Shown one piece after another: positions 28,274 to 45,057 of a stretch of DNA of 60,994 bases; position 1 is the stretch's first letter; every line of letters starts with the position of its first letter. The notes under the pieces are model-generated. The model saw only the letters and a list, made by a program, of their open reading frames with translations. It was not told the DNA's origin and searched no databases. Both the position numbers and the translations under genes were made by a program. Source of the DNA: Parcubacteria group bacterium GW2011_GWD2_38_11 (GTDB lineage Bacteria > Patescibacteriota > Minisyncoccia > Moranbacterales > GWC2-37-73); assembly GCA_000992325.1 (NCBI GenBank), contig LBTZ01000001.1:1-60994 (forward strand). Direction: 5' to 3'.

Positions 28274-30889
28274 ATGTCCCCAAGAAACTCCGATAAAAAC
28301 AAAGATGTGATAAAAGAACTGGAAAAAACAATTTCCCCAATTTTGGTTGTCAATAATTCTTCCCTAAAACCATATGTGGAATTATTTGAATACGCACCAG
28401 AAAACATCTACCAGCAACCACTTGGCAGTCTTGTTGGTTTTTTCGAGGTCAAAGAATTCTCTGATGAATCTGCTTATGTTGTAAACTTTCTAACATCTGT
28501 TTTAAAAAAAGAATATTACATCAACCCCAAAAGACCGGTCACTGAAAGCCTGGACAGTGCCCTGCATAAAGTGAATATGGCGCTGTCTGAGTTGGCAAAA
28601 CACGGAAACGTTGAATGGTTGGGCAAAATAAATGCTGCCATATGCGTGTTGGAGAAAAACAACGCTCATTTTAGCGTTTCAGGCGATGCCAAAATCTTCT
28701 TATACCGCAATCAGGGACTTTCCGAAATAAGTGAAGATCTTGCATCAGATTCTCTTGAACCACATCCTCTTAAAACATTTGTTAATGTTTCCAGTGGACG
28801 GCTTGAAAAAAATGATCGAATGCTGATAACGTCAGCTGATATTTTTCATATTCTTCCAACCAGTGAAATAAAAAAGAACTTCCAACGCTTCGAGGGAGAT
28901 AAATTTGTACAATTTTTAAAAACCGCGCTTTCAAACCAAATAGAAATGATTGTGTCGATAGTTGTCGAAATGACAGAAGTGATTCCAGTCGTCACAACAA
29001 AAGCGCTGCCTCGCAAAAAATCTCCTCAAGCAGCCAATGCCTTTAGCGAACAAACCTTTGCCAACACATCGCCCGCAAACAATTTGGCGCAGGAGAATGA
29101 GCTTGCTATGGCTATGGAAGCAGAAGAGAATGAGCAGGAATATACCGATGAAAAAACCGGACATATCTACATCCAAGGAGAAACCATCGCAAGCCAAGAA
29201 GCTGCTCATGCTCAAATGAATCTCTACTGGGATATGGTCAAAGAAAAAATATCCCAAGGATCATACCTTACAAAAAATGAAATTAGAAAACGTTTTTCTT
29301 TATACAAAAAACAATTAGCAAAGAAAAAAGCGCTTCGCAAAATTGAAAAAGAACAGCGCGAGCAGCTGAGGGCTGAGGAAAATAAGCGCCTTGAAGAAGA
29401 AAGAGTTCTCCAGGAAGTTCAGCGCGAGCAACAACTTGCCCAAGAAGCGCAACTTCAGCAAGTTCGCCTCAAAGAAGAAAGTGAACGCCAGCAACTTTAT
29501 TTGGAGCAAGAAGCTCTTCTTGCAAAAACAGCCAACTCCAAGAAAAAGTTGGAAACAAAAATCAAAATTAAAGACAATTACACGGAGACACTCTCTTCAA
29601 GCTCACAACTAAGCTTTAAAGAAAAACTTCAATTGGCAAAGTTAGAACAGCAAGGAAATGCTGTCATTGATTTGAAAAACAAAACCACCCAGGAAGCTGA
29701 GATCTTCGAAGAAGAAATTATCACTGAGCCAGAAATAAAATTTGAATCCCCTGAAAAACAATCAGAAGCAATGAAGCTCAGAACGTTAGCTTTGGAAAAT
29801 ATCAGCAAGATATTACCACTATCAAAAAAAATAATTGCTTATGCAAAAATTGGACTAAACAAACTTTCTTCAGCAATAACAAAAAACGAAGCCGGTGTCG
29901 CAAAACCAAATCAATTAACAAGCATCATAACTCCTCATTTTTCAAAAATTGGAAAATTATTCTCACATTTTTCAGGAAAACAAAAATTGTTCATTCTTTT
30001 TGCACTAGCTCTTATTTTTATCGCACCACTTTTTATTGTGCGCTTCTTAAATAGGCCAAAAGCTCCAACGATCGTTGAACTTCAGGATGCACCTATGACT
30101 CAAATTGGAGCATTGGCAAATGAAAAAGGTATTGATTTTAACACGCAAATTCAAACAATTTTATCAAACTCAAATATCGTTACCACCCTTATCGCAAACA
30201 ACAACCCAACAGTTGTGACCAAAAACAGCGTCATTGTTTTGCAAAATAATCAACCAAAAGAATTTCCGATTCCTGCTGACTCTGGAGTTGTTGCTGCCGC
30301 AACATATATGAAAGATTTATCACTAATTTTGATTTTCACAGATAGCAACAGGATTCTTTCCTTCAGCCCAATTTCAGAAAAATTTTCAAACAACAATATA
30401 AATTTATCAAATCTTTCATCAGCAAATCCGATTGGAACATATTTGACATATATGTATGTGCTTGATCAAAAAACCAATCAGATTTATCGTTTCCCGCGCG
30501 CAGACGGTGGATTTGGAGAATCAACAAATTGGCTGAAAGATTCAACACCTCTTGCAGATGTTTCAGAAATAACAATCGACGACAACATTTACGCAGTTGC
30601 CAATAATAAAGTTTTAAAATTCTTCAAAGGAAAAGCTGTGGATTTCACACTTGAATCATCAACCACCCCAGTTAATTTTGACAAAATATATACAACTCCA
30701 GATCTGCAAAACTTCTACGCACTAGACACACAGAACTCGCGTCTAGTTTCATATAGCAAAGACGGCAACATTCTTACACAATACCACAATGAAGCGTTTA
30801 AAGACGCAATTTCATTATCAGTCGACGAACAAAACAAACTCGCATACATTGCAACTTCACAAGGTTTAATTTCACTTGAACTCCAATAG
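28274..30889 (+). CDS. Large membrane protein: N-terminal PP2C-like (possibly degenerate) domain, Glu/Gln/Arg-rich coiled coil, one TM, C-terminal beta-rich domain
   Basis: AAICVLEKNNAHFSVSGDAKIFLYRNQGLSEISED and GRLEKNDRMLITSADIF mirror PP2C/SpoIIE strand motifs. The coiled coil spans about 29300-29560. TM helix LFILFALALIFIAPLFIV. The start at 28274 is tentative. Confidence 0.6.
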   Translation: MSPRNSDKNKDVIKELEKTISPILVVNNSSLKPYVELFEYAPENIYQQPLGSLVGFFEVKEFSDESAYVVNFLTSVLKKEYYINPKRPVTESLDSALHKVNMALSELAKHGNVEWLGKINAAICVLEKNNAHFSVSGDAKIFLYRNQGLSEISEDLASDSLEPHPLKTFVNVSSGRLEKNDRMLITSADIFHILPTSEIKKNFQRFEGDKFVQFLKTALSNQIEMIVSIVVEMTEVIPVVTTKALPRKKSPQAANAFSEQTFANTSPANNLAQENELAMAMEAEENEQEYTDEKTGHIYIQGETIASQEAAHAQMNLYWDMVKEKISQGSYLTKNEIRKRFSLYKKQLAKKKALRKIEKEQREQLRAEENKRLEEERVLQEVQREQQLAQEAQLQQVRLKEESERQQLYLEQEALLAKTANSKKKLETKIKIKDNYTETLSSSSQLSFKEKLQLAKLEQQGNAVIDLKNKTTQEAEIFEEEIITEPEIKFESPEKQSEAMKLRTLALENISKILPLSKKIIAYAKIGLNKLSSAITKNEAGVAKPNQLTSIITPHFSKIGKLFSHFSGKQKLFILFALALIFIAPLFIVRFLNRPKAPTIVELQDAPMTQIGALANEKGIDFNTQIQTILSNSNIVTTLIANNNPTVVTKNSVIVLQNNQPKEFPIPADSGVVAAATYMKDLSLILIFTDSNRILSFSPISEKFSNNNINLSNLSSANPIGTYLTYMYVLDQKTNQIYRFPRADGGFGESTNWLKDSTPLADVSEITIDDNIYAVANNKVLKFFKGKAVDFTLESSTTPVNFDKIYTTPDLQNFYALDTQNSRLVSYSKDGNILTQYHNEAFKDAISLSVDEQNKLAYIATSQGLISLELQ

Positions 30890-31503: not shown

Positions 31504-31674
31504 TTTTTATGCACAAAAAAATCCACGTACCTTTAGGGCACATGGACACTATCTTTATATTATACAACTAAATAATCAAAAAGTCAATATAGGCACAAAA
31601 AACGGCTAGCTATAGCCGTTTTTAGGTGTAAGAATTTTTCACGGTAGAGACGCATTGCAATGCGTCTCTACGTG

Positions 31675-34161
31675 TTAGAAAGATGATTCTTTCATCACAC
31701 TTCTTGCAAATCTGGCGCGTTCCATGATCTCACGGTTTACAATGGCTGCGTCGCGACCATATTTGAGGCGTGAGAGCTCTTTGAGATAATTAGCGGCCTC
31801 TTGATTCCCTCGAGTTGGCGGATAAAATTTAATATTGAATGGTTTGGAAAGTTCGCCATTAACCAGCATCCGAGTAAAACCACTATAGTTATCCACATTA
31901 ACCAAATCGTTGGCGGTAAAAATAGGTTCAAATTGTTTTTCCAAAAATTCTGCATCCTCCGGTCCAACTCGCAGCGCCACCATTGAACCAACATTACCAA
32001 ACACGGCTTTGGAAATTTCTTCCTTGAGCTGTCCAATGAATTGATGAGCTATAATCAAACACAAGCGATATTTTCGCGCTTCAGAAAGAATTTGAGAAAT
32101 CGATTCGGTTGTGACATTTTGAAATTCATCCAAATAAAGATAAAAATCGCGACGCTGATCTTCAGGCATATCTCCGCGTGCCAAAGCATTCATTAAAATT
32201 TTTCCCACAATAACCATTCCCAAAAGATGAGCGTTAATTTCACCAATTTTTCCCTTAGAAAGTTTCACCAGTAAAATTTTTCCAGAGTCCATCACTTCGC
32301 GAAAATTAATTGTGCTTTTTTGTTGAGCGATAATTGGACGCATCATATCATTAGAAACAAACGTGGTGAGTTTGGAAGTGATATACGGAACCATATTGGC
32401 AAGTGCCGCTTCCCCGCCAGCCTTCTCAGCTTCTTTGATCCAGAAATCTGAAACAACAGGATTGTTGCATTTGGACAATTTCATTTTCCGAAAATCCTCA
32501 TCTGCCAAAACCTTGGAAATTTCCATAAGAGTTGAACCTGATTCTGGATCTTCCATAATAAGAAGCATTGCGTTTCGCACGTATTGTTCAAACATCGGAC
32601 CTCCCGTAGCTTTAAGATCATACAACTGATCAAAAATACCAATCATTTCGTTGATAACAAAAGTTTTTTGCTCGGGATGGCTTGGATCATATTCAAGCAT
32701 ATTAAGTCCAAATGGTCGTTCCATATCAGACGGATCAAACACGATCACATCTTCCGCGCGCTCCTTTGGAATGGCGGTCAAAATATCCTCAATAGCATCG
32801 CCGTGTGGATCAATAAAACAAAAACCCCTGCCGTCGCGCGCATCTTGTTTGGCCATTTCTTGCAAGAAATTTGACTTACCAACACCAGTTTGACCAATGG
32901 TATACAAATGCCTTCTTCTGTCGCCATCACTAAGCCTGATATCCGTTTTCACTCCGCGATAATCATTATAACCAAGCACTAAACCTTCTTTTGGTATATT
33001 GAGTGGTGGCGGTGCAGCTCCAGCTTTCAGCCATTTAATTTTTGGCGTTTCAGTGGTGGAAATTGGAAAATGAAAAATGCTGGCAATTTCTTCTGTAGAC
33101 AAAATGATAGAATGCTCTTCGTCAAAATTTCTGAAGATATAATCAAAAGATATTTTCTTGGATTTTATTCTTTTTTGCACCACAAAATGATTGACGTCGT
33201 GATTTTCAAATTGCGCAAAAGAATTTTCCATATGCGCCAAGACTTCATCCGCCTTTTGCTGACTCATCGCAGACGCAAGCAAGCGAACATTCACCTTAAA
33301 TCCAGCCTTTCCAGATTTTGCTTCAATTTTCTTTACAAGCTCCTGTTCTTCCGGAGTAAGCTGCACTGAGTCCTTGTGCATAATTTCTTCCTTTGGCTTG
33401 TTTTGAATCACTTGCACCACACCTTTTCCAAGCTCCATTGCAATCGAATTTGAATGTGCATCCTTAAGCTGTTTTCCTTGTTGCATCTTGTGTGCAATTC
33501 CTCTTCCCAATTTTCGCCAATTTTTTCCCGCAGGACGCAAAACAATTTGAATAGCTGCACCTTCCCCTTCTGTTTGCAATTTACTAAGCGCATTTGAAAT
33601 TTCATTGAGCGGGTCAACATCAATATTTTCATATGTAAGAACTGGCAAAGCATATGAACGCTTAAGTCCAAGTGTTGCAGCAGCAGTAAAACTCCCCGGT
33701 GAAAAAATTGTATAGTCAGGAATTTTTTCAATAGAAGAATGAGGGAAATATGAATGAACTTGCTTCTCAATGCTGTCACGAAATTTCTTCGGCACTGCCA
33801 AATAAAAAGAAATTTCTTCATTCCCACACGGATTGGCAATTTCTAGTGCCATATATGGCTCACTATACAAAAAATGAGCCCAGAGTGATTTTTTTTCTTT
33901 AATATTGGAAAGTGTGGTGAGCAATTGCTCCATAGCACCAATTTCTTCTTTCCAAGCTTCTCCATTTTCATTTCGCTCACCTCTTTCTTTGAAAATTTTT
34001 GTCACCCGCACAACTTCAAGATCCATATTCATTGAACGGTTGATTTGAGCGCGATAATTCAAAAAACTTCGCACAATCAAAAAAGCCCCACTCAAAAGAG
34101 TCAACGTGCCAAAAACCCAAAGCAAAGGAATCAAAATAACATTAAGGTCAAGAGTATTCAT
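31675..34161 (-). CDS. TM-anchored P-loop translocation ATPase of the FtsK/HerA/VirB4-VirD4 superfamily
   Basis: 828 aa. N-terminal TM helix. Walker A GQTGVGKS, then FIDPHGD. Walker B YLYLDEFQNV. ARKYRLCLIIAHQ (RK..TQ-like motif). A ~400-aa N-terminal domain of unknown function. Confidence 0.75.
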   Translation of the reverse strand: MNTLDLNVILIPLLWVFGTLTLLSGAFLIVRSFLNYRAQINRSMNMDLEVVRVTKIFKERGERNENGEAWKEEIGAMEQLLTTLSNIKEKKSLWAHFLYSEPYMALEIANPCGNEEISFYLAVPKKFRDSIEKQVHSYFPHSSIEKIPDYTIFSPGSFTAAATLGLKRSYALPVLTYENIDVDPLNEISNALSKLQTEGEGAAIQIVLRPAGKNWRKLGRGIAHKMQQGKQLKDAHSNSIAMELGKGVVQVIQNKPKEEIMHKDSVQLTPEEQELVKKIEAKSGKAGFKVNVRLLASAMSQQKADEVLAHMENSFAQFENHDVNHFVVQKRIKSKKISFDYIFRNFDEEHSIILSTEEIASIFHFPISTTETPKIKWLKAGAAPPPLNIPKEGLVLGYNDYRGVKTDIRLSDGDRRRHLYTIGQTGVGKSNFLQEMAKQDARDGRGFCFIDPHGDAIEDILTAIPKERAEDVIVFDPSDMERPFGLNMLEYDPSHPEQKTFVINEMIGIFDQLYDLKATGGPMFEQYVRNAMLLIMEDPESGSTLMEISKVLADEDFRKMKLSKCNNPVVSDFWIKEAEKAGGEAALANMVPYITSKLTTFVSNDMMRPIIAQQKSTINFREVMDSGKILLVKLSKGKIGEINAHLLGMVIVGKILMNALARGDMPEDQRRDFYLYLDEFQNVTTESISQILSEARKYRLCLIIAHQFIGQLKEEISKAVFGNVGSMVALRVGPEDAEFLEKQFEPIFTANDLVNVDNYSGFTRMLVNGELSKPFNIKFYPPTRGNQEAANYLKELSRLKYGRDAAIVNREIMERARFARSVMKESSF

Positions 34162-34331
34162 TTATGTTTTATATTTATTTGAGTTTTATGCCTTTATTTT
34201 GTCTGAAAATTTTCAATAATCAATTTTCAATTTTCATTGAATTTACAATGATTCAATGATCAATTCCTGGTTTGAAAATTTCAAAATTGAAAATTGATTG
34301 TAAATTGAAAATTGTGAATTGAAAATTGAAC

Positions 34332-34772
34332 TTAAAGCTCTTTTATCATTCCCTTCTCCACCAACGCATTATGCAGCTCTTCGCCAAGCATACGGTCGTG
34401 AAAAGTGTCGAGCACATAATTGTCTTGCATATGTTGAGCGACTTTCACAGCGTGCACAACACCTTTTTGACCTGCAATATCAATCAAATGTTGCACTTGC
34501 GATTGAGCGTCCATTTTTTCGTAGCCAGTTTTAGCATCATTGACAATAACTGCTTGATCTATTTCATCATCACTTTGCACTGTCTGAACTTTAGAAAGAA
34601 TTTTACCATAGGCATCATCCTTTTCGGCTGCACTAATTTCCTGTGGCATTTCACGCTCAATAGTGGCAAATGGAGATGACTCCTCACGAGAAAAATCTAC
34701 GCGCCCATTTTTAAGCTTACCCTCCAAGTCCAAATCACTTTCCTCAATCGGCTCTAAGTTACTCTTTAGCAT
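34332..34772 (-). CDS. Acidic hypothetical protein (146 aa)
   Basis: ORF in the same-strand block, with no recognisable motif. Confidence 0.5.
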   Translation of the reverse strand: MLKSNLEPIEESDLDLEGKLKNGRVDFSREESSPFATIEREMPQEISAAEKDDAYGKILSKVQTVQSDDEIDQAVIVNDAKTGYEKMDAQSQVQHLIDIAGQKGVVHAVKVAQHMQDNYVLDTFHDRMLGEELHNALVEKGMIKEL

Positions 34773-34921
34773 AAATTTCTAATTTCTAATTTCCAATTTT
34801 TTGCCCCAAGCTTATCCCTTGAGGGCTAAACAATTTCCAATGAATAAATTTCCAAATGTTTGAAAATTAATGAATTGAAAAATTGAAAATTAATTGAAAA
34901 TTGAAAATTGTGAATTGAAAA

Positions 34922-35236
34922 TTATTTGTTAGCATTCATCATCTCTCCTCTAAATTCCTCGATAATCCCCTGCACCATTTCATCATAATCATTGATTCTC
35001 TCCTTGAAAAATTCTTCCACCTGCGCTGGAGAGACTTCGCCTTCTGACATTTTTTCATATTCTTCGCGACCCTCTTCTCCAAGCTTATCCATTGTTTCCA
35101 GAAAAATTCTCTTTAGCAAAACTTCAGTCATCTTAATGATGAGTTCATTTTGTTTGTCCTGGGAAAGCGTGTCGATTCCCATATCTTTAATCAATTGACC
35201 CAGAGCCTCTGCTTGCGCAGTATTATGTTCTTCCAT
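34922..35236 (-). CDS. Acidic helical hypothetical protein (104 aa)
   Basis: ORF in the same-strand block, rich in Glu and predicted helices. Confidence 0.5.
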   Translation of the reverse strand: MEEHNTAQAEALGQLIKDMGIDTLSQDKQNELIIKMTEVLLKRIFLETMDKLGEEGREEYEKMSEGEVSPAQVEEFFKERINDYDEMVQGIIEEFRGEMMNANK

Positions 35237-35256
35237 ATAAATTATTTTTTAAATTT

Positions 35257-37614
35257 TTATTCAATATTTATACCCAGACGCTTCTTTATGGTAACTTCTT
35301 TTACGCGATAAAGCCATTTTCCAAAAGTAGTATTGCTATTAGGAAAATTACTAGTATTACCAAACTCTTTTTTATATTCCTTTGCCATTTCTTTCATAAT
35401 TGGACGCAATTTATCATCAGCATAGGCAGAACTATAATCCAAATTTTTAATATCATCCCATTTATAGCCAGTAACCTTGTATATACTATTTGTAGCTGCC
35501 TTTATATCCTTAAAGCAAGTCTCTTTTGCATTCGCCAAATTTTCAACCGTCAAAGCTGCCGATTTGCGCGCCTCATCAGCGCGACCCATATCTTCATATT
35601 GAGATACTGATGGTCCATCTCCTCCAGCAGGATGATTAACTGCAGCATCAGCTGCTTGGACATATTCAGCATTAGCGCTTTTAAACATCTCCTTTGCTGT
35701 TGATATATTTTGCTCCGTGTCACCAGTGTGTCCTAAAACATCAGCATTTCCTACCACCGCAGCTGCTGACGGCTTTGGAATATCAGTTGGCCCAACACCA
35801 GCGCCCGCGCCTTGCCCACCTTCAACAGCAGTGCCACCAACAGAATGATGCCCATCCAGGTGTGAAATTTTTCCACTAATATCTTTCAATTCAAATTTCA
35901 ATGGATTATGTTCATCGATAATCATAGTCGTCCCAGGCTTCACATTAACCATTCCATCTTTTAACATTTTATAATATTCAGTCTCTCCAACTTTCTTAAT
36001 AAGATCTTGCTTATTATCATGCATATAGTCCAACCACATTCGGTGAGCCGCTGCTCCAGGATTTTTCATATCTGGATGGATTTTCCTAATATGATCAATC
36101 AGTGTTTTTTCAATACTTGAACCTTTTTCAATGGTCAAAGATTCAGCTGGCGCCTGAGTATGTAAAGCTTCTTGAAAATTTGCTGGGACGTGCGTAACTG
36201 GCATCTTTCCATGTTCAACAAAATTAGCTGGCACACTTTTTGGGTGTTCAAATGCAGCAGTAATTGGTGTCTCACCATCTTGGGGATTCAAATTACTTAC
36301 ATTTTCAGTAATTCCACCAGAAAAAACTCCTGATTTTGGAATTGGTGGTAATTTTGCACCAACATCCTTCGCATTAGGCACATTTGTTGCAATATGTTCA
36401 GCGCCAACACCACTTCCTTGAAGTGCATGTGCTATACCACTAAAAGCCATTGTTCCGAATATCGCTACCATTCCAACCGCCACAACTTTATTAACCTTTG
36501 AGCGTAAAACATACTTGTCTAATTTTTTATCTACATTTTCAATTTCACCATTCAAAATTCCTTTAAACTTTTCAAAATCAATTTTTCCACTTTCAACTGT
36601 AACATCCTCAATGTTCTTCTTGCCATCCTTATTACTAAAATATTTATCCACGAATTGAGCAGCGGCGTCTAGTTGCATTCCGCCAGTAGTTGCCATTATA
36701 AGAGACCCCCAAACTCTTTTTCCAGTTGAAAAAGCACCCGCACCGGCCACAAAAGATCCAACTGCCAATCCACCCTTCACCCAAAACGGAACTTCTTTAT
36801 TATACCAATTTGCAACACTAGTCATCTTTAAACTTACATTGTCCCAGACCTTTCGTGCGCCAGATTTGTCAGCGGAATCTTCTTTTTTATAAGCAATGAT
36901 TTCTTCAGTTCTAGCATTATACAAATCATGGGCAGCCTTAACGTTGTAATAAGTATACAATTCCTTAAGTTCAACTTGCAATTTCTTTTCATCAATTTCA
37001 CCTTTATCACTTTTTGATTGCAACTCAAAAATTTCCTTGTCCAATTTAGTCTTGAGCAATTTTTCATATGCCTCACGCTCACTTTTTATAGTTGCGTTTT
37101 CTGGATATTTTTTTCCAATTTTTGAAAGATTAAATTTGGAATGCTTTTCCAAATTTTCCATTGCCTTTTGCTCCCTGAATTCAGTTCTGGCATATCGCTG
37201 TCTTGCTTCAATCAAAGCTTCCTCAAGAGGATCCTTTAATTTCTCAGGTTGAACATTTACTTTTTTTTCAATTTCAGCGATTTTTTCTGATTCAATTTTT
37301 TCCTGAACACCTTTCTTTTCTTTTTCAGCCAGCCTTCTCGCGGCATTTTCCTTGTTTTTGATTTTTTCATCAACAACATTATCAACATCCAAAGTTACTA
37401 TTGGAGAAGGTGCAGCTTCCGGCTGAGCAACTGCAACTTTTGCATCATCAATAACAGGTGGAATATTTTCCACCAAAACTGTACCAGAGAAATCTACCAA
37501 TTCTTCATTTTTTGCATCAGCAGCATCATTTAAAACACGGAAGCGATTTCTAGCCTCTTCCCGAGATGTTTTTATCAAATCTCCTGCAATTTTTAGCATA
37601 TCTTCAGCTGCCAT
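35257..37614 (-). CDS. Large membrane protein (785 aa): N-terminal coiled coil, central TM helices, C-terminal domain of unknown function
   Basis: Hydrophobic segments FWVKGGLAVGSFVAGAGAFS, WGSLIMATTGGMQL and VVAVGMVAIFGTMAFSGIAHAL. No catalytic motif recognised. Confidence 0.6.
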   Translation of the reverse strand: MAAEDMLKIAGDLIKTSREEARNRFRVLNDAADAKNEELVDFSGTVLVENIPPVIDDAKVAVAQPEAAPSPIVTLDVDNVVDEKIKNKENAARRLAEKEKKGVQEKIESEKIAEIEKKVNVQPEKLKDPLEEALIEARQRYARTEFREQKAMENLEKHSKFNLSKIGKKYPENATIKSEREAYEKLLKTKLDKEIFELQSKSDKGEIDEKKLQVELKELYTYYNVKAAHDLYNARTEEIIAYKKEDSADKSGARKVWDNVSLKMTSVANWYNKEVPFWVKGGLAVGSFVAGAGAFSTGKRVWGSLIMATTGGMQLDAAAQFVDKYFSNKDGKKNIEDVTVESGKIDFEKFKGILNGEIENVDKKLDKYVLRSKVNKVVAVGMVAIFGTMAFSGIAHALQGSGVGAEHIATNVPNAKDVGAKLPPIPKSGVFSGGITENVSNLNPQDGETPITAAFEHPKSVPANFVEHGKMPVTHVPANFQEALHTQAPAESLTIEKGSSIEKTLIDHIRKIHPDMKNPGAAAHRMWLDYMHDNKQDLIKKVGETEYYKMLKDGMVNVKPGTTMIIDEHNPLKFELKDISGKISHLDGHHSVGGTAVEGGQGAGAGVGPTDIPKPSAAAVVGNADVLGHTGDTEQNISTAKEMFKSANAEYVQAADAAVNHPAGGDGPSVSQYEDMGRADEARKSAALTVENLANAKETCFKDIKAATNSIYKVTGYKWDDIKNLDYSSAYADDKLRPIMKEMAKEYKKEFGNTSNFPNSNTTFGKWLYRVKEVTIKKRLGINIE

Positions 37615-37654
37615 TTTTTTGTTTTATGAATTTTTGCAAATTATTTCTTGATTC

Positions 37655-39457
37655 TTATTTTACCAACTCCGTTAAAACTTTTTTAATAAAAACTTCTTTT
37701 TTATCATCCGCAACAACCTTTTCCTGCTCAAGCAGTTCGTCCAAAAACGCCACCACTTGACCCTCCAGGAAACTTTCCTGATATTCCGTCCTAAGTTTTT
37801 TATATTCTTCATTTCCCCGCAATAATATCACCAATTTATCCCTAAAATCTTTTGCCAATTCCAAAGATAACTCAAAAACCTCATTGGGATCTTTTTCATT
37901 TTTTTCTTCAGTTTTACCCTCAACAACAGCATCTGGTTTGAAATTCCTATCAACCATATAAGTTTTACCCTCAATAACAACCAATCTCTTGGGATAATTT
38001 GGATCATTTATTTTTCCAACAAATTCTTGATAAAAAGCAAGACTATCCCAAAAATCTTTATGTTGTTCCCTTGATGCAGCATCTGTGTGTTCGAATTCTA
38101 TAAGATCAGCATATTCCATTAGTTTTTTAACCATATCATCGCCACTGGCCAACTTATCCACCAGGCTAATTCCAAATTCTTTTTCAAAACGCTCAACGGA
38201 TAAATGCTTCTCTATGATATTCCTAGCAGCATTTCTGAATTCACTGGCAATTTTACTATTCTCATCTTCAATATTTTCATTTTTTTCAACATCAACTTTT
38301 GTTTCCACCTTTTTAACTACGGGTTTTTTCTTTTTTTCAGTCTCACTTAAATCCTTCTTTCTTTTTTCTAATATTTTTGAAATCTCTTTTTTGGCACCAG
38401 CAACAAGACCCTCAAACTCTTTGGATTCTTCTTCAGACAAATCCTCTGTTTTTATTTGATCAAAATTTTCCAAATAATGCTGCTTGTCTTTTAAATTAAC
38501 CGCAAATTGCGTTTTTCCTATTTCATCTTTGGCAATATCAAAAATATTAACAACCAATTTTTTGCAATTTTCGAAATTTTGTTTATCTTTTTTTGATTCA
38601 ACTCTTTTAAATTGTTCCTTGTTTTTTTCGTATTCATCTTGCAATTGTGCAAGTTTTTCAATATGACTCTGGAAAAAACTTAACACTTCGTCAGAATATT
38701 CTGAAATCGAACCATCTGATTTAACTCTGCCATTAATTTCATCAATTAGGGCATTTACTTTATCTGCCTCTTCCTTAAAAAAAGCTACTGAGTCTTCAAC
38801 ATATTGGCCACTCTCCCAATCAATATTTGTTTGCTTATTAAGCCCATCAGCCAAATCACAAATCTTATTCCAAGTATCATTGATTTCTTTTTTTAATTCT
38901 TCATCAACCTTTTCCTCCTCCACAGCAACAGCATTATTATCTTTATTGCAGACGGCTTCAATGGCCAGTTTAGTGTCGGCAGATTCACATGCAATATTGT
39001 TCAGGTTGGAAAGACAAAATCTTTTAATATAAGCATCCACCTCACTTTCTTTCAAATTATCATCATTTCCATATTCCTGAATAAATAATTTTTTGAGCAG
39101 ATCCAATGCGCCACCATCAAAAAGCAGTGCATTGCGAAGCAAGGTGCCGACTTTTTTTATTTTCCCATGATCTTTCTGACTTTCTATTCTCACATCCTCA
39201 TTATTTTCCTTGCTGAAAACATTCACGAATGAATTTTCAATAATCTCTTTTATTTTTTCATTACCTGTTTCAACATCAGCAACTGGATTTTCAATAACTG
39301 CCTGTTCCATTTCTCTAGCGGATGCCAATGATTCATCTTCAATTATTTTTATCTTAAGTGAACGCATAGGATCAGGTAAAACCCCAAAACCAGCAGGTTT
39401 TGTTTCAGAACTATTTAATAAAGTTATCGGGTGTTTTATAACATCAAAAAGTTTCAT
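37655..39457 (-). CDS. Large acidic coiled-coil protein (600 aa), no recognisable domain
   Basis: Long uninterrupted ORF, highly Glu/Lys/Asp-rich, 40 nt upstream of the next gene. Confidence 0.6.
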   Translation of the reverse strand: MKLFDVIKHPITLLNSSETKPAGFGVLPDPMRSLKIKIIEDESLASAREMEQAVIENPVADVETGNEKIKEIIENSFVNVFSKENNEDVRIESQKDHGKIKKVGTLLRNALLFDGGALDLLKKLFIQEYGNDDNLKESEVDAYIKRFCLSNLNNIACESADTKLAIEAVCNKDNNAVAVEEEKVDEELKKEINDTWNKICDLADGLNKQTNIDWESGQYVEDSVAFFKEEADKVNALIDEINGRVKSDGSISEYSDEVLSFFQSHIEKLAQLQDEYEKNKEQFKRVESKKDKQNFENCKKLVVNIFDIAKDEIGKTQFAVNLKDKQHYLENFDQIKTEDLSEEESKEFEGLVAGAKKEISKILEKRKKDLSETEKKKKPVVKKVETKVDVEKNENIEDENSKIASEFRNAARNIIEKHLSVERFEKEFGISLVDKLASGDDMVKKLMEYADLIEFEHTDAASREQHKDFWDSLAFYQEFVGKINDPNYPKRLVVIEGKTYMVDRNFKPDAVVEGKTEEKNEKDPNEVFELSLELAKDFRDKLVILLRGNEEYKKLRTEYQESFLEGQVVAFLDELLEQEKVVADDKKEVFIKKVLTELVK

Positions 39458-39491
39458 GCATTGATTGCTAAAAGATTTTATTTACCTAAAA

Positions 39492-39500
39492 ATTATATCA
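39492..39500 (-). promoter_or_regulatory. Extended -10 promoter element (TGATATAAT) upstream of the 600-aa gene
   Basis: The minus strand reads tgTGaTATAAT ~35 nt upstream of the ATG at 39457, just after a terminator. Confidence 0.4.
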
Positions 39501-39543
39501 CAAAATTCGTTTTTCTCCCATAGCAAAATTTTATGAAAAATTA

Positions 39544-39580
39544 AAAGGCGCAGTAATGGAAAATTCCATACTGCGCCTTT
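39544..39580 (-). terminator. Terminator after the 282-aa membrane protein gene
   Basis: aaaggcgcagta-tggaattttcca-tactgcgccttt followed by a T-run on the minus strand. Confidence 0.65.
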
Positions 39581-39610
39581 ATTTCATCACCTCCTTTTGT
39601 GCATTATTGT

Positions 39611-40459
39611 TTAGCTCGATGATTTCATTAAGCCAAGTCCGCGAGCTTTGTTCAATGCGTCTTCATATTCCTTGGGAAGCTTGACGCCAGGATTTGCCTT
39701 TTGCCATGCTATCACCCCATCCACGAATTCGTTGTCGATCTGCTCTTGCTGCTTTTTTTGAATGGCAGTCAGATCGTTGACGCGTTTTGCTGTAGAAGCT
39801 GAAATTACATTGACCTTGTTACCAATGAGTCCATCGAGATAAAAGCCAACGTGTGGGAAAAGTACAAATACCAATCCCACAGCATAAGCAACAACTGCAA
39901 CCTTAACTGTAAATCGCGACATTTTTTTGAATGATGTGAAATTGTCAATTGCGACAACCACCATCAACATCAAGATTACAATCGCCGCAGTCATTCCGCC
40001 AAATGTATAATTGACATACAGCGGAAGAATCAGAAACAGTGCGGTTTGTGCCAGGAAAATTTTGGAAATTACTGTAAGATAAGCCCGGATGAATTCATTA
40101 TCGAAGACTCCAGTCTCCTCCTGATTTTCAACGGGCCTTCCACGCAATTTTTTTAATTCATTACTGAGTGCCGTCAAAAATTCGAAGCTTTCTCCTGTCA
40201 GATGCATATTGAGCATGCGCCGAACCGAACACAACCTGTATAGCGTGAACAGCCATGGAATCAAAGTGATGCAAATAGAAACTTTGATGGACGGGCTAAT
40301 CAACAGAATCAACGCAGACCCCAAAATTGTTGCGCCCAATACCGTCATCAGTGTCCAGCGAATTCTAACGAGCTCACCAGAAACTGCATTCCACATTGTC
40401 GAAAAAAATCTTGCTATCATAATTGCCTCCCTTTTTAGTTGAGAAATATTTTCTTCCAA
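39611..40459 (-). CDS. Polytopic membrane protein (282 aa, about 5 TM)
   Basis: Hydrophobic helices throughout. It overlaps the upstream gene by 25 nt, so an alternative start at 40420 is possible. Confidence 0.55.
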   Translation of the reverse strand: MEENISQLKREAIMIARFFSTMWNAVSGELVRIRWTLMTVLGATILGSALILLISPSIKVSICITLIPWLFTLYRLCSVRRMLNMHLTGESFEFLTALSNELKKLRGRPVENQEETGVFDNEFIRAYLTVISKIFLAQTALFLILPLYVNYTFGGMTAAIVILMLMVVVAIDNFTSFKKMSRFTVKVAVVAYAVGLVFVLFPHVGFYLDGLIGNKVNVISASTAKRVNDLTAIQKKQQEQIDNEFVDGVIAWQKANPGVKLPKEYEDALNKARGLGLMKSSS

Positions 40460-41205
40460 AGTGGACGATTGTTAAACTCCTCATTCCTGTCCGCAACCAT
40501 TGTCTCCATTTTTGCCAAAGAGCAATCAACTGAATCATAGATTCCGATCGCCCTTGATTTTAGGAGTGGCCACAATGTATCCTTACCAAATTTCAAAAAA
40601 TTTTCCAAACTCGATGAAGCATCCTGCATTGCACCAACAGCAATTATTCGCGTGAATACTTCCGCACTAGAAGTGCATGTTGTCGCAAGTTCCTGCAAAA
40701 TGGTAATTCCCGGACGAATGCATGCGGGAACAGCCGGAATAGCAGCGACCGCTGGCGAACCAGGTATTGCGGGTTTTGCAGCAGTAGTACTAGTAGCTGG
40801 CACAGCTGGTGTGGCAGCAACCGCAGACTTACCTGGAACAGCAGGAGAGCCAATAGTGCTTGGGAAATCCAAATCGTGAATAGTAACAAGTATTCTGAAG
40901 TTTTTTGCATACGTTGTGCCATTTGCATCATCCGCTTGTTCTACAAATATCATTGCTTGCTCAATCATTTTCTTTTGAGCAGGTGTAGCAATAGCTTCAG
41001 CAAGATCAAGAGCAAAATAGTGTTCATCCAACCAGCCTTTTGGGTCAATAAGACGTTTCTTTATTTCCTCTCCAACCGTTTTTCCAGCAATCTCGCCAAC
41101 ACCCAAAAAACCAATGATTCTGCCCGCCCAAGTCCATGCATGTTTCAACATACCCAGAAATGCGCCTTCTCCCAATGCCTCTGCCATAAATCTCCCCAGT
41201 GCCAT
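40435..41205 (-). CDS. Hypothetical protein with central Pro/Ala-rich tract (256 aa)
   Basis: Strong SD (aaaaggggagg) before the ATG. Tract SPAVPGKSAVAATPAVPATSTTAAKPAIPGSPAVAAIPAVP, with a local GC spike. Confidence 0.6.
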   Translation of the reverse strand: MALGRFMAEALGEGAFLGMLKHAWTWAGRIIGFLGVGEIAGKTVGEEIKKRLIDPKGWLDEHYFALDLAEAIATPAQKKMIEQAMIFVEQADDANGTTYAKNFRILVTIHDLDFPSTIGSPAVPGKSAVAATPAVPATSTTAAKPAIPGSPAVAAIPAVPACIRPGITILQELATTCTSSAEVFTRIIAVGAMQDASSSLENFLKFGKDTLWPLLKSRAIGIYDSVDCSLAKMETMVADRNEEFNNRPLWKKIFLN

Positions 41206-41286
41206 GATAAACCTCCCCTTTTCCTTTATTTAGTGTGTGTATATTATATTGTCAAAGAGCCTGTTTAAGGCCCTTTTTGGCCTTGC

Positions 41287-41310: not shown

Positions 41311-41339
41311 ATCTTAGCACAAAAAAGACATTATGTCAA
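41311..41339 (-). promoter_or_regulatory. Sigma70-type promoter of the 41205<-40435 gene
   Basis: Minus strand reads TTGACA, a 17-nt spacer, then TAAGAT. Confidence 0.55.
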
Positions 41340-41394
41340 GCTCGCTGAAAGCTGAAATTGGTGGTATAATTTAAAAATAAAAATCATAATCTTT

Positions 41395-41512
41395 TGTCAT
41401 TCCCGCGTAGGCGGGAATCCAGGACTGAGCCAGACGGAAACGCGAACCTAGATTCCGGAACACCTGCCCGCAATGCTTCGCATAACGATGCAGGCGGGAG
41501 TCCGGAATGACA
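41395..41512. mobile_element. Family A double-hairpin element with a family B palindrome nested in its second hairpin
   Basis: tgtcattcccgcgtaggcgggaatccagg ... gattccgga[acacctgcccgcaatgcttcgcataacgatgcaggcggga]gtccggaatgaca. Confidence 0.8.
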
Positions 41513-41529
41513 AATAAAAAAATAAAAAA

Positions 41530-43089
41530 ATGAACAAAAAAATCGTCTGGGGGCTATTGTTGGCAATTTTGATTACGGCTTTTGCACTGCGAGTAACCAA
41601 CATCAAAAACATTCCGGCGGGAATATATCCTGACGAAGCTCAAAATGGCGTGGATGCGCAGCAAGCGAATGCCACTAGGGAGTACAAACTTTTTTATGAA
41701 GGAAACCAAGGTCGCGAAGGATTATTTATAAACCTGCAAGCACTCTCGATCAAAGCATTTGGTCCAACTGAATTTGCGCTCAAGCTTTGGTCGATCATTT
41801 TTGGCACACTGACAGTGCTGGGAGTTTTCCTTCTAGCCAAAGAACTTTTCAAAAGCTATGCAGCTGGTCTGATCGGCGCATATCTGATTGCTTTTTCATA
41901 TTGGGCAATCAATTTTTCCCGCATAGGCTTTCGAGCTATTATGGTTCCATTTCTTCTTTCTTTTGCTTTTTATTTCATCTTCAAGGGTCTTCGGACAAAA
42001 AAACTTCATACCTTTGTCATTGCTGGCCTCATCTATGGTCTTGGTCTACACACCTATATCGCCTTTCGAGTTTCCCCATTGGTTTTGATTGCACTTTTCG
42101 TTTCACTCCTCATTACTCGTAAAAACTTTTTTAAAGAATATTGGAAACATATTCTTGTTTTTGCTTTTGCAATGTTTGTCACTGCCGCACCAATGCTCCT
42201 TGATTTTTTTGTTTACAACCCGGACCATTATGCATCGCGCACCAGTGCAATTTCCGTTTTCAATCCTGTCACAAACGGTGGGAACCTGCCACTAACAATT
42301 GCCAGAACATTCGGATTAAGTTTGCAAAAATATTTTGTGATGGGCGATCTCAATATGAGACACAACTATCCACCTTACGCACTGCTTAACCCTATTGTGA
42401 GTGTCACATTTTTGATTGGGCTTATTTATATTGCTAGCAAATTTCTGCATTTATTATGGCTACGCATAGCAAAAGGACAAAGAGACGAAAGAATGGACAT
42501 CTATGTCTTTTTGTTGTCTTGGTTTCTCGTGCTACTCATTCCTGAATTTTTGGCTAACGAAGGAAATCCTCACGCTCTGCGTTCCATTGGGACCCTGCCT
42601 GTAGTTATCATCATCTCAACTATTCCCTTCCTTTGGATATTTAAAAAATATAATCAATTTGGACATAGCTATAAAATGTTCACCATTTCCATTTTTATTG
42701 GGGCGTTTATTTTTATTGGACTCGCTGATCCAATAAAATATTTTGTATTTTTTGCTAACAGCCCAAAACAACATCAGGTTTTTGAAGCCAACACGAGAGC
42801 AATCTCTGATTATATTCGAATTCTTCCTCAGAGCGAAAAGAAATATATTGTTACGGGTGCTATGCCAAGACTAACAATCAATTATCTCAATCCGACACTG
42901 CCAAACACTTTCTATCTCTATCCTTCTCAGCTTGATCAAATCAAAACCAACAGCAACGAGAAGTTGACGATTATTTTCACCGGCTGGGATTGGGATTCGA
43001 TCAATGCCCTCCGCGCGCGAATTCCCAATCTTACTTTCCAAGAACATAAAAACAAATTTGGAGATGTATTTATAACATTAAGCAACTAA
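41530..43089 (+). CDS. GT-C fold glycosyltransferase (ArnT/PMT, GT39/GT83-like)
   Basis: 519 aa, polytopic. The first loop carries GIYPDEAQNG (a DE motif characteristic of lipid-carrier-dependent GT-C enzymes). Confidence 0.75.
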   Translation: MNKKIVWGLLLAILITAFALRVTNIKNIPAGIYPDEAQNGVDAQQANATREYKLFYEGNQGREGLFINLQALSIKAFGPTEFALKLWSIIFGTLTVLGVFLLAKELFKSYAAGLIGAYLIAFSYWAINFSRIGFRAIMVPFLLSFAFYFIFKGLRTKKLHTFVIAGLIYGLGLHTYIAFRVSPLVLIALFVSLLITRKNFFKEYWKHILVFAFAMFVTAAPMLLDFFVYNPDHYASRTSAISVFNPVTNGGNLPLTIARTFGLSLQKYFVMGDLNMRHNYPPYALLNPIVSVTFLIGLIYIASKFLHLLWLRIAKGQRDERMDIYVFLLSWFLVLLIPEFLANEGNPHALRSIGTLPVVIIISTIPFLWIFKKYNQFGHSYKMFTISIFIGAFIFIGLADPIKYFVFFANSPKQHQVFEANTRAISDYIRILPQSEKKYIVTGAMPRLTINYLNPTLPNTFYLYPSQLDQIKTNSNEKLTIIFTGWDWDSINALRARIPNLTFQEHKNKFGDVFITLSN

Positions 43090-43106
43090 AAAATAATTTG
43101 CATATT

Positions 43107-43188
43107 TGTCATCCCGCACTTGATGCGGGATCCAGAAAGTCTCACTAAATAAAAAATAACCTGGATTCCCGTTTTCACGGGAATGACA
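43107..43188. mobile_element. Family A double-hairpin element (short spacer)
   Basis: tgtcatcccgcacttgatgcgggatccag ... cctggattcccgttttcacgggaatgaca. The annotated ATG at 43183 lies inside it. Confidence 0.8.
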
Positions 43189-45057
43189 ACAAAAATACAA
43201 AACGCTATGGAAAATTTCCTCAAAAAGCACTACCACTGGATTGTTCTCATCATTATGTCTTTTTTTGTCACAGTGTCATTGCTAAACGCAAAAAATGACA
43301 CCGCCACCTTTGACGAGGTTGCACACATTCCTGCAGGATACAGCTACATCACTCAGCAGGATATGCGTCTTAATCCTGAACATCCACCACTACTCAAAGA
43401 TCTGATTGGCATACCGCTAGCATTTCTCGATCTTAAATTCGACACTACCCAACCATTTTGGACTGGCGAAGGATTAAATAAGATTTGGGACGATGGACAA
43501 TGGGCTGCTGGCAAACATTTGCTCTATGAAGCTGGCAACAATCCTGACCAAATTCTTTTTTGGGCTCGACTTCCAATTGTTTTAATCTCAGTGATTCTTG
43601 GTTTATTTCTTTTTATGTGGGGCAAGGAAATCGCTGGGATTTTGGGCGGACTATTTGTCCTCACACTTTATGCTTTTGATCCAAATATTCTTGGGCACAA
43701 TCATTATGTCACCACAGACATCGGCATTGCTGCCTTTCTAACTTTTGCTTTTTATTATTTCCTTAAATTTATCAAGAATCCAACTTGGAAAAATGTTGCT
43801 GTTGGTGGAATTTTTCTGGGACTTGTAAGCTCAGTAAAATTTTCATCACTAATGGCTTTTCCAATTCTCGGACTTGTTCTTCTTGGCTATCCTTTGATTA
43901 AAAAAATATCTCATAATGATATCGAAATAAAAGAGAAATTTTTACGCACAAAATTATTTTTTTCATATCTAATAAAAGGTGTTGCAGCTTTTGCAATTTC
44001 AATGGTTATTGTTTGGATTTTATATTTTGCAAACACATACAATATGCCGCAAGATGTTATTGCTAGACAAATTAATTTCTCCTTTCCTTCTAATGATACA
44101 AATCCTCTCAGCATAGCAACCAACAGCGCATTGACCGCTCTTAATTCATCAACGATGCTTCGCCCATACGCAGAATATTTCCTTGGAGTCACAATGGTGT
44201 TCAAACGTGTCGCTGGAGGAAATGGAGCATATTTTTTAAATAATGTTTCCGGCAAGGCATCTACGATATATTTCCCATTAGTATTTCTCATCAAAGAAAC
44301 GCTGCCATTTCTGGTATTAATTCTCTTTTCATTGCTTTACACTGGCGGACAAATTGTTAACAGCTTCAAAAAATCAATAATTGAAAAAGCTGTCAGGAAA
44401 AATTTCAAACGCTTTTTGCAAACAGGCGTAATGCAATATTCTCTTTTCGGTTTTATTGTTCTGTACTCATATCTCAGCATTACTGGCAATCTGAACATTG
44501 GACTCAGACATCTCTTTCCGATTATGCCACTAGCATATCTCCTCGTGACCAAAAAAGTTTTCGACTTTCTAAGGCATAAGCACTTTGTCACAAAACATCA
44601 ACTGCACGTGCTTTTTGCAATCTTGATTATCTGGATCGTTATGATTCCTGTTTTTAGTTATCCCAACTACGTTTCATATTTCAATGAAACAGTTGGTGGT
44701 AGCAAAAATGGCTACAAGATTGTCACTGACTCAAATGTGGATTGGGGGCAAGATCTAGGCAGGCTAAAGATATTTTTAGATCAAAATCCACAAATAGAAA
44801 AAATTAATGTGGATTATTTTGGCGGCGGAAACCCAGCATATTATCTGGGAGACAAATATATTTCCGGTTGGGACTCCAAGCGACCAATTGAAGCTGGTTG
44901 GTATGCTATCTCAGTAAATTCACTGCAAGTTAGTATTTATGACAAAATGAATAAGACGCCTGAAAATAATTACGCTTGGACACAGCAATATGAGCCAGTG
45001 GATATGATTGGAAATTCAATTATGATTTATTACATACCCTTTACAATAGAGCAATAG
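43183..45057 (+). CDS. GT-C fold glycosyltransferase (PMT_2-like), second paralogue
   Basis: 624 aa, polytopic. The first loop has ATFDEVAHIPAGYSY. The start may instead be the ATG at 43207 (MENFLKK). Confidence 0.7.
   Translation: MTTKIQNAMENFLKKHYHWIVLIIMSFFVTVSLLNAKNDTATFDEVAHIPAGYSYITQQDMRLNPEHPPLLKDLIGIPLAFLDLKFDTTQPFWTGEGLNKIWDDGQWAAGKHLLYEAGNNPDQILFWARLPIVLISVILGLFLFMWGKEIAGILGGLFVLTLYAFDPNILGHNHYVTTDIGIAAFLTFAFYYFLKFIKNPTWKNVAVGGIFLGLVSSVKFSSLMAFPILGLVLLGYPLIKKISHNDIEIKEKFLRTKLFFSYLIKGVAAFAISMVIVWILYFANTYNMPQDVIARQINFSFPSNDTNPLSIATNSALTALNSSTMLRPYAEYFLGVTMVFKRVAGGNGAYFLNNVSGKASTIYFPLVFLIKETLPFLVLILFSLLYTGGQIVNSFKKSIIEKAVRKNFKRFLQTGVMQYSLFGFIVLYSYLSITGNLNIGLRHLFPIMPLAYLLVTKKVFDFLRHKHFVTKHQLHVLFAILIIWIVMIPVFSYPNYVSYFNETVGGSKNGYKIVTDSNVDWGQDLGRLKIFLDQNPQIEKINVDYFGGGNPAYYLGDKYISGWDSKRPIEAGWYAISVNSLQVSIYDKMNKTPENNYAWTQQYEPVDMIGNSIMIYYIPFTIEQ

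Follow-up and report, generated by a model that had tools for sequence, protein, structure and literature searches.

Among solved structures, the closest described counterpart of the protein considered here is TrwB of R388 (PDB 1e9r/1e9s/1gki), in which a P-loop nucleotide-binding domain (NBD) of the FtsK-HerA superfamily carries an all-alpha insertion between its Walker A and Walker B motifs and is held by an N-terminal anchor. The same arrangement occurs in an 828-aa ATPase (KKQ53622.1; US70_C0001G0026) of Parcubacteria group bacterium GW2011_GWD2_38_11, a member of the Moranbacteria within the Patescibacteria, encoded by the last of seven genes in a block on contig LBTZ01000001.1; the stretch analyzed, referred to as the window, comprises positions 1 to 60,994 of that contig. 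Identity to TrwB is only about 16%, and the ATPase differs in having an additional domain of ~350 aa, DUF8128, between anchor and NBD, a single transmembrane (TM) helix where TrwB-type type IV coupling proteins (T4CPs) have two, and a chromosomal, housekeeping context with no relaxase or type IV secretion system (T4SS) gene nearby. T4CPs with DUF8128 on plasmids and in phages have their architecture in common with the ATPase; the plasmid copies have VirB4, a gene of a relaxase family and further conjugation genes as neighbors. VirB4/TrwK (PDB 8rtd, 7o42) resembles the ATPase in its length of ~800 aa and in joining an N-terminal domain to a C-terminal ATPase, but the two align at a TM-score of 0.30, no VirB4 Pfam model matches the ATPase, and the true VirB4 of this genome (KKQ53039.1) is encoded elsewhere. 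A further likeness concerns the 146-aa product of the adjoining gene, g146, which, like CagZ with Cagbeta (PDB 8dol) and IcmS/IcmW with DotL (6sz9), is a small acidic helical protein encoded beside a T4CP and presumed to bind it. This is an analogy only, as no solved structure has detectable sequence similarity to g146. Cagbeta is bound by CagZ at its all-alpha domain and DotL by IcmSW at its C-terminal tail; the g146 domain, where fused to the ATPase, is N-terminal. No g146-like domain was present in the two plasmid copies and one phage copy of the DUF8128 T4CP that were inspected.

A preliminary description of the block, made from the sequence, put it forward as a candidate for an undescribed T4SS-like envelope machine. 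We read it as a composite: a chromosomal T4CP with a dedicated partner, g146, lying beside a hypervariable cassette of accessory or substrate proteins, and serving a distant T4SS. We give this reading a probability of about 0.55. All seven of the same-strand genes described earlier were recovered on the minus strand (coordinates from the list of open reading frames, in order of transcription):

40435-41205, minus strand: g256, 256 aa, first gene, in the upstream unit
39611-40459, minus strand: g282, 282 aa, TTG start
37655-39457, minus strand: g600, 600 aa
35257-37614, minus strand: g785, 785 aa
34922-35236, minus strand: g104, 104 aa
34332-34772, minus strand: g146, 146 aa
31675-34161, minus strand: the ATPase, 828 aa

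The assignment of the 828-aa protein to the VirD4/TrwB-type coupling ATPases (T4CPs), as a member of a DUF8128 subclass, is held with very high confidence. Walker A (GQTGVGKS at residue 423), FIDPHGD at 449, Walker B (LYLDEFQNV at 675, with DEF at 678), the motif ARKYRLCLIIAHQ at 695 and one N-terminal TM helix (residues 8-26) are all present, in agreement with the earlier account. DUF8128 (PF26449) covers the N-terminal ~350 aa in precomputed annotation of KKQ53622.1 and of all listed homologues; the layout is thus TM 8-26, DUF8128 at ~45-400, and NBD with all-alpha domain at ~400-820, the last three placed in the cytoplasm behind the single anchor. The Pfam models proposed for checking gave a clear division: TrwB_AAD_bind (32.3 bits, cutoff 20.5) and TraG-D_C (28.7 bits, cutoff 22) scored above their cutoffs, DUF87 (HerA) fell below its own (22.1 bits against 23.2), and neither AAA_10 nor CagE_TrbE_VirB matched at E-values up to 1. 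NCBIfam matches were to TraD and VirD4-like models, and FtsK_SpoIIIE matched in neither Pfam nor NCBIfam. By sequence the closest PDB entry was TrwB (E = 0.0056 with the single protein, 5.4e-8 with the family profile), with DotL next. An AlphaFold2 model built from 22 diverse homologues (predicted local distance difference test, pLDDT, 86; predicted TM-score, pTM, 0.76) was searched with Foldseek; its predicted C-terminal half aligned to TrwB with a TM-score of about 0.67 (0.66-0.71) over ~440 columns, and predicted helices 497-602, between Walker A and Walker B, correspond to the all-alpha insertion of TrwB. Other Foldseek matches were VirB4, Cagbeta and DotL, with HerA at rank 42.

The placement in the VirB4/VirD4 branch of the FtsK-HerA superfamily made earlier is thus upheld by Pfam, NCBIfam and fold alike, and within it the VirB4 option falls away in favor of the T4CP models. 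TrwK/VirB4 did return the best Foldseek E-values, with alignments across both halves of the ATPase, at the low TM-score given above; hhalign of the ATPase family against genuine VirB4 gave a non-significant probability of 5.5%, and there is no VirB3-like neighbor, g146 not being VirB3-like because it lacks a TM helix. DUF8128 may still be of VirB4-like origin, an idea for which these alignments speak and against which the TM-score and the hhalign result stand. Grouping with housekeeping FtsK/SpoIIIE or with HerA-NurA pairs was also checked and neither was found. The former was rejected on the missing FtsK_SpoIIIE match, the single TM helix, and PDB and fold matches to T4CP, VirB4 and HerA; a HerA-NurA or HerA defense ATPase was rejected on the sub-threshold DUF87 score, the rank of HerA in Foldseek, PADLOC HerA matches at E = 1e-4 or weaker, and the lack of a partner gene. 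G423, G426, K429, D678, E679, R696, K697, Y698, Q707 and Q711 are invariant in the 22 diverse homologues; with its catalytic residues intact and conserved across the family, the enzyme should be active. Between the window and L088, a close relative, the ATPase is 98% identical with a ratio of nonsynonymous to synonymous substitution rates (dN/dS) of 0.024, so that it is under very strong purifying selection and among the most constrained genes of its neighborhood.

The ATPase is already catalogued. Table S3 of a survey of these systems lists KKQ53622.1 as a T4CP (t4cp1, 90.9% coverage of the CONJScan match as given there; VirB4 proximity: No) (Quinonero-Coronel et al., 2025; PMC12102498). According to the same source, the 936-kb genome carries a full Patescibacteria-type T4SS cluster at coding sequences (CDS) 657-679, with six VirB2-like pilins, VirB3/PrgI, TrsD, VirB4 (KKQ53039.1) and VirB6, and the T4CP is CDS 879; by these numbers the T4CP gene and the cluster are ~200 genes apart. 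The table gives a second, weaker T4CP match in this genome and includes none of the six partner proteins among its mating-pair-formation or T4SS components. With the T4CP already catalogued and a complete T4SS elsewhere in the genome, the undescribed T4SS-like apparatus is not borne out. Across the survey, 5,713 VirD4-like T4CPs were found in 2,918 of 3,035 genomes, 148 of them near virB4, and in a sample of the survey table VirB4 was also present in 15 of 17 T4CP-bearing genomes. The parts of the survey consulted do not describe the neighborhood of the T4CP genes, the g146 partner or its fusion, the DUF5663 link, or the hypervariable cassette (PMC12102498). Our own inspection found no relaxase or mating-pair-formation gene among the proteins of the 61-kb window and, as had been noted, no relaxase, VirB1-type hydrolase or pilin in the block. 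Some T4CPs are known to be encoded apart from relaxase and T4SS genes, so the missing linkage does not exclude membership of the T4CP class.

Conservation around the ATPase was assessed in 80 species-level Patescibacteria loci that were fetched, together with nine closer relatives, with synteny counted over 81 loci. By tblastn, g146 lay beside the ATPase in 16 of the 81, g104 in eight and g785 in one; no locus had g256, g282 or g600. Iterative profile searches raised g146 to as many as 47 loci and found the g785 family in eight Moranbacteria loci; g256, g282 and g600 still had no relatives in the 81. Only g146 tracks the ATPase across this set.

g146 (isoelectric point, pI, 4.4; no TM helix) begins with a variable acidic tail and ends in a conserved helical motif of ~55 aa, V..LV.IA..KG...AV.VA....D.Y.LD.FHD.L, in which D122 is invariant. 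Upstream sequence was available for 72 informative loci. In 19 of these (21 including those found by tblastn only) a separate g146 gene stands immediately 5' of the ATPase gene, and in 27 the ATPase carries the g146 domain as an in-frame fusion at its N-terminus; the fused form was also seen in 19 of the top 150 family representatives. A fusion of this Rosetta-stone type argues strongly that the two proteins are partners, physically or in function, and gene order and fusion together make this probable. A TM helix was predicted in none of the 27 g146-fused ATPases and in 47 of the 51 unfused ones; g146 fusion and membrane anchor are mutually exclusive. The g146 protein had no Pfam, NCBIfam, PADLOC or PHROG match, its profile found nothing significant among PDB sequences, and all its database copies are annotated as "hypothetical." An NCBIfam TraY match (E = 0.0016) was set aside since it falls in the variable acidic tail, outside the conserved motif. 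A second family of small upstream proteins (15 loci, ~166 aa) was considered as a divergent g146, and hhalign showed no relation. Between the window and L088, g146 is 84% identical (dN/dS 0.14).

The other small protein, g104 (pI 4.1), is, like g146, acidic and helical, as first described. It was counted earlier among six partners with no recognizable domain, and here that count has to be corrected: g104 scores 21.3 bits against Pfam DUF5663 (PF18908), just under the cutoff of 23.7, with 82 of 84 profile positions covered, and its orthologues (76-95% identical) are flagged PF18908 in precomputed data; g256, g282, g600, g785 and g146 remain without family assignment. The g104 family occurs in 10 of the 81 loci, not always adjoining the ATPase, and DUF5663 is mainly confined to Moranbacteria, so that its link to the ATPase is looser than that of g146. 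Identity to the L088 copy is 95% (dN/dS 0.055). In L090, where the ATPase is 97% identical, the DUF5663 and g146 genes are separated by an inserted gene of the PDDEXK_3 nuclease family (132 aa; L090 8942-9340). We found no papers on DUF8128 or on DUF5663.

Beyond the phylum, an exhaustive search returned 5,582 clusters (50% identity) at E < 1e-30, mostly full-length matches. Relatives that match over the full length (DUF8128 plus T4CP, residues ~95-815, 22-30% identity) were found on Streptomyces, Bacillus, haloarchaeal and Sulfolobus plasmids as well as in large Bacillus phages (phrog_5156, E = 9e-86; SP-10, CP-51, phage G). On Shouchella clausii plasmid NZ_CP012476 the homologue WP_248290882.1 directly precedes a Replic_Relax gene and lies near a separate VirB4 (AAA_10, E = 1e-115); on a Natrinema plasmid the homologue is downstream of a "conjugal transfer protein" gene and a pilin gene. 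Because the plasmid homologues sit in conjugation modules, for which they supply the coupling ATPase in Bacillota and haloarchaea, the DUF8128 subclass consists of true coupling proteins used by the conjugation systems of monoderms and archaea. Its chromosomal descendant is the Patescibacteria clade, a vertically inherited core gene.

Two side observations concern this wider family. Phage-borne DUF8128 T4CPs include gp156 of phage G (87045-97159, our locus L085) and those of SP-10, CP-51, Goe26 and Thrax phages, with 80 further phage records besides L085; in phage G, gp155, a VirB4-like P-loop protein (AAA_10, P-loop_TraG), adjoins gp156. Long family members (P0171, P0173, P0174, P0184 and P0187; 1,267-2,006 aa) have Pro/Ala-rich low-complexity C-terminal tails reminiscent of the Pro/Ala tract of g256. 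As Rosetta-stone fusions these long proteins (1.2-2.0 kaa) were rejected, their extensions having neither a Pfam domain nor similarity to cassette proteins.

In Patescibacteria the ATPase gene is near-universal, and its neighbors in the wider phylum are housekeeping genes (dnaX, ndk, map, adk, secY, cysS). In Moranbacteria the block has constant flanks: two PMT_2 genes, ftsQ and holB make up one of them, and rmuC with the genes of a 201-aa and a 740-900-aa protein the other; between the window and L088 the flanking genes are 81-97% identical (housekeeping genes 86-97%; dN/dS 0.02-0.14). Because these housekeeping flanks are constant, the locus is core chromosomal and not a mobile element; the window holds no integrase, relaxase or tRNA-flanked boundary. 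The upstream boundary in all Moranbacteria loci is formed by two tandem PMT_2 (dolichyl-phosphate-mannose-type) glycosyltransferase genes (41530-45057, plus strand), divergent from the block. On the other side, convergent to the ATPase, a 911-aa protein (28154-30889, plus strand) without a Pfam domain and with a strong TM helix at 611-629 is kept beside the ATPase in all Moranbacteria loci, at 81% identity where the ATPase has 98% (dN/dS 0.14). Several contigs of metagenome-assembled genomes with Moranbacteria or Patescibacteria gene order and T4CPs 50-83% identical (L002-L005, L018, L019, L021, L023 and others) are titled "uncultured Bdellovibrionales," "Gammaproteobacteria" or "Saccharibacteria," probably taxonomic mislabels.

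The four upstream genes behave differently from the ATPase and g146. The seven-slot architecture recurs in the close relatives L084, L088, L090 and L002, with contents that turn over rapidly. g256 has the Pro/Ala tract reported earlier (at about residues 119-161); its homologues are limited to L088 (60%), L090 (58%) and L084 (43%), its dN/dS against L088 is 0.25, and its single family match is a weak one to a phrog of unknown function. g282 is basic and polytopic, and the count of about five TM helices stands, five hydrophobic segments being predicted. Homologues are again found only in L088 (53%), L090 (47%) and L084 (36%) (dN/dS 0.23 against L088), and the VirB6-like role once proposed for it finds no support, as neither VirB6/TrbL nor any other Pfam or NCBIfam family matched. 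The TTG start of g282 overlaps the end of g256 by 25 nt (40435-40459), and an identical 25-nt overlap in L088 (3455-3479) suggests translational coupling of the pair. g600 is helical and, as noted at first, very acidic (pI 4.6, 22% D+E); it occupies a hypervariable third slot and has homologues only in L083 (40%) and L084 (31%). The same slot holds an unrelated 771-aa protein in L088 (ATPase 98%) and an unrelated 580-aa protein in L090 (97%). The proteins of this slot are mosaics drawn from three or more families unrelated to one another, and none has a Pfam domain. A DHH-phosphoesterase motif in the 771-aa protein of L088 had no Pfam support, and a shared C-terminal "translocation module" (XVIPCD-like) was discarded because the ~80-95-aa segment occurs only in L083, L088 and L090 and is absent from g600 and from L084.

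g785 is bitopic: a helical/coiled-coil region at the N-terminus is followed by a strong TM helix (374-392), after which come a disordered linker rich in Pro (~400-480), a conserved small alpha/beta module (~490-580) and a C-terminus that is again helical; of the two to three central TM helices first described, the one at 374-392 is strong and the others are only weaker hydrophobic helices at ~285-330. The family is confined to Moranbacteria loci, always directly 5' of the DUF5663 gene, and has seven detectable relatives among 5.8 billion proteins. Against L088, g785 is 57% identical (ATPase 98%) with a dN/dS of 0.37. A scaffold role had been suggested for it, and no fold was recognizable: the AlphaFold2 model from the seven database homologues is of low confidence (pLDDT 46), with no Foldseek match below E = 3. 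The segment TIEKGSSIEKTL...VKPGTTMII at ~490-570 looks LysM-like by eye, and the Pfam LysM model gave no match. In L002 (ATPase 83%) the architecture is kept and three of the four upstream proteins have no detectable similarity to those of the window; in L001 (ATPase 73%) a single 313-aa protein, linked by jackhmmer to the g785 family, replaces all four genes. No cassette protein, in the window or its relatives, has a domain recognizable with Pfam or NCBIfam. Cassette dN/dS values against L088 (0.23-0.37) are raised, yet all below 1, and dS is near saturation; gene-wide positive selection was therefore rejected, and diversifying selection is not demonstrated. Relaxed constraint and local diversifying selection fit the divergence alike and cannot be told apart.

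These observations suggest how the parts may work together. g146 would bind the membrane-proximal N-terminal (DUF8128) face of the ATPase and, by analogy with CagZ for Cagbeta or IcmS/W for DotL, may serve as an adaptor, tether or regulator, with g104 (DUF5663) as a putative second small accessory protein in Moranbacteria. The ATPase would form a hexamer at the membrane that selects and energizes substrates and, with ATP, delivers them to the T4SS ~200 genes away. The proteins g256, g282, g600 and g785 would be a cassette restricted to the lineage, fast-diverging and in part mosaic, made up of membrane proteins and acidic coiled-coil proteins; they would not be conserved machine parts, and are most likely accessory, envelope or substrate proteins for the ATPase. 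The coupling of the T4CP to the distant T4SS, taken by itself, we consider slightly less than an even chance.

Several points weigh against this composite. T4CP homologues occur in 96% of genomes and VirB4 in 80%, and in Saccharibacteria t4cp was reported to be non-essential and the T4SS essential, an observation for which the survey authors raise exaptation (PMC12102498). A physical or expression link between the T4CP and the distant T4SS is putative, the role given to g146 is suggested by gene adjacency and fusion, and to see the cassette proteins as substrates or accessories is conjecture. In 15 of the informative loci an unrelated small gene stands upstream instead of g146, and nine have none. 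The ATPase has one TM helix against the usual two in T4CPs, and the g146-fused forms have none. The cassette proteins have no shared C-terminal signal, and their gene-wide dN/dS stays below 1.

The alternative that survives best is an exapted T4CP, with the DUF8128 ATPase and g146 forming a T4SS-independent core translocase that acts on nucleic acid in uptake, segregation or division, or on substrates of its own; in Moranbacteria, g282 and g785 could be its local membrane partner. The prevalence and essentiality figures just given favor it, as does the small share of T4CPs near virB4 (148 of 5,713; PMC12102498), although the excess of T4CP over VirB4 may stem from incomplete metagenome-assembled genomes or from multiple T4CP paralogues per genome, and the sampled T4CP-bearing genomes nearly all have VirB4 as well (15 of 17). 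The essential Se T4SS cluster has no recognizable coupling protein (Wang et al., 2023). The housekeeping context (ftsQ and holB here, dnaX, secY and adk elsewhere), the extreme purifying selection on the ATPase, and the fixed position of the g785 family beside the module throughout Moranbacteria also fit a core function. Set against these are the relatives outside the phylum in classical conjugation modules, a separately annotated ftsK in Saccharibacteria at least, the absence of g282 beyond close relatives, and the lack of any DNA-binding or other functional domain among those looked for. We regard the exapted translocase as unlikely, if a serious contender. A bolder form, in which the DUF8128 ATPase and g146 would be a VirB4-independent, Patescibacteria-wide translocation module, with g146 interchangeable with the TM anchor and the cassette as its fast-evolving substrates or a host-facing envelope conduit, is distinctly doubtful; if true, it would be a novel route for secretion or uptake, at the core of the epibiotic lifestyle.

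The idea from which the analysis started, that the seven genes are a self-contained minimal or diverged T4SS-like envelope machine with g282 as its VirB6-like component and g785 as scaffold, has become very improbable. The single strand and tight packing, the recurrence of the seven slots in L084, L088, L090 and L002, and two membrane proteins adjoining a secretion-type ATPase speak for it. However, the VirB4 hallmark is missing from the block and the genome has a full T4SS at another site; none of the six partners matched VirB4, VirB6 (TrbL), VirB3, VirB8, VirB1 or pilin models in Pfam, NCBIfam, PADLOC or PHROG; the g600 slot is swapped at 98% ATPase identity; and in L001 the 313-aa protein of the g785 family is all that corresponds to the four genes. 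Synteny of the neighbors in related genomes had been set beforehand as a test of this idea, and it largely fails: with g256, g282 and g600 in none of the 81 loci and g785 in Moranbacteria only, there is no conserved seven-gene block, and the self-contained machine is largely refuted. A defense system or decaying integrated mobile element (a HerA- or mad8-like defense NTPase, or the leftover T4CP of an integrative conjugative element, with the neighbors as cargo) could draw on a PADLOC mad8 match to the NTPase domain (E = 8.7e-13), weak HerA matches, homologues in Bacillus phages and on plasmids, hypervariable neighboring genes and the PDDEXK_3 insertion in L090, but it is highly implausible given the same housekeeping flanks across Moranbacteria, near-universality in the phylum, the ATPase dN/dS of 0.024, the lack of an integrase, relaxase or tRNA-flanked boundary in the window, and a mad8 match that covers the generic P-loop core only, with no other MADS or HerA-partner genes.

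The block had been divided into two transcription units, one ending after g282 and the other running from g600 to the ATPase. The signals cited for this are present, together with others:

41311-41339, minus strand: promoter-like site ahead of g256, TTGACA-17-TAAGAT with TG upstream (read against the consensus)
~41212-41218, minus strand: Shine-Dalgarno sequence GGGGAGG before the g256 ATG (sequence read)
39536-39577, minus strand: intrinsic terminator-like hairpin (39577-39547) and T-run 3' of g282 (folding against shuffles)
39492-39502, minus strand: extended -10 element TGTGATATAAT, 35 nt 5' of the g600 start (consensus match only)
34773-34921, minus strand: structured gap g104-g146, of the same repeat-hairpin type as the next (z about -3.7 to -4.1)
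34162-34331, minus strand: structured gap g146-ATPase, in which TTTTCAA, first repeated in tandem and then inverted, folds into a long hairpin (z -4.3 to -4.7)
31521-31547, minus strand: terminator-like hairpin and T-run ~130 nt past the ATPase stop (sequence scan)

As an intrinsic terminator the hairpin 3' of g282 is convincing: it folds at -24.5 kcal/mol with a z-score of -6.8 (0 of 200 shuffles folded equally well), and the terminator described as closing the first unit therefore stands. So do the consensus-like promoter and strong Shine-Dalgarno sequence of the first gene and, at 39502-39492, the extended -10 element before the second unit. Promoter-like sites are not enriched across the region, however (38 observed against 29.9 +/- 5.8 in shuffles). 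Because the second unit holds two extra strong hairpins and promoter-like sites, two units are a minimum: the signals stand and the limit to two does not. Candidate ATPase promoter sites lie at 34325-34256 and promoter-like sites precede g146 too, so that the second unit may be subdivided and the ATPase may have a separate promoter.

Repeat-hairpin gaps also occur in L001, L002, L007, L008, L083, L088 and L090, built from ~7-nt units that appear first in tandem and then inverted (z -2.4 to -6). These units differ wholly by lineage, TTTTCAA in the window and CTAAAGA, ACATGTA, ATACGAA, ATTTCTAA and CAGCTTT elsewhere; structure is therefore conserved and sequence is not. As a locus-specific regulatory element these hairpins were rejected, since in a control they proved generic in the window, with z below -3 in 11 of 19 gaps. 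The local GC spike reported near g256 is real (0.43 at 40-42 kb against about 0.37 in the surroundings). Upstream of g256, at 41385-41515, lies an intergenic palindrome, rich in GC and bounded by terminal inverted repeats (GTCATTCC...GGGAATGAC), of which further copies are found near 202, 5798, 19637, 23723, 43176 and 51918. Its motif C[A/G]CGGGAATGAC occurs seven times in the window against 1.8 expected (0 of 100 shuffles reached seven). The copy 5' of g256 folds into a closed multibranch hairpin (-55 kcal/mol, z -4.9) and has the look of a repetitive extragenic palindrome (REP) or a miniature inverted-repeat transposable element (MITE).

The ATPase is thus known and catalogued, and an undescribed seven-gene machine is not upheld. 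The pairing of g146 with a T4CP, with its fusion or TM-anchor exchange, appears to be new, as we found no Pfam family or paper for g146; the conserved T4CP beside a hypervariable Moranbacteria cassette, one that turns over even between near-identical strains, is apparently new as well. A T4SS is retained by nearly all Patescibacteria genomes, and in the single species tested it is essential. A coupling protein normally selects the substrates, and in Patescibacteria it is encoded away from the T4SS. Within the composite reading, g146 and the cassette are concrete candidates for the adaptor and for substrate or accessory proteins, and they make the cooperation of T4CP and T4SS testable by genetic and biochemical means.

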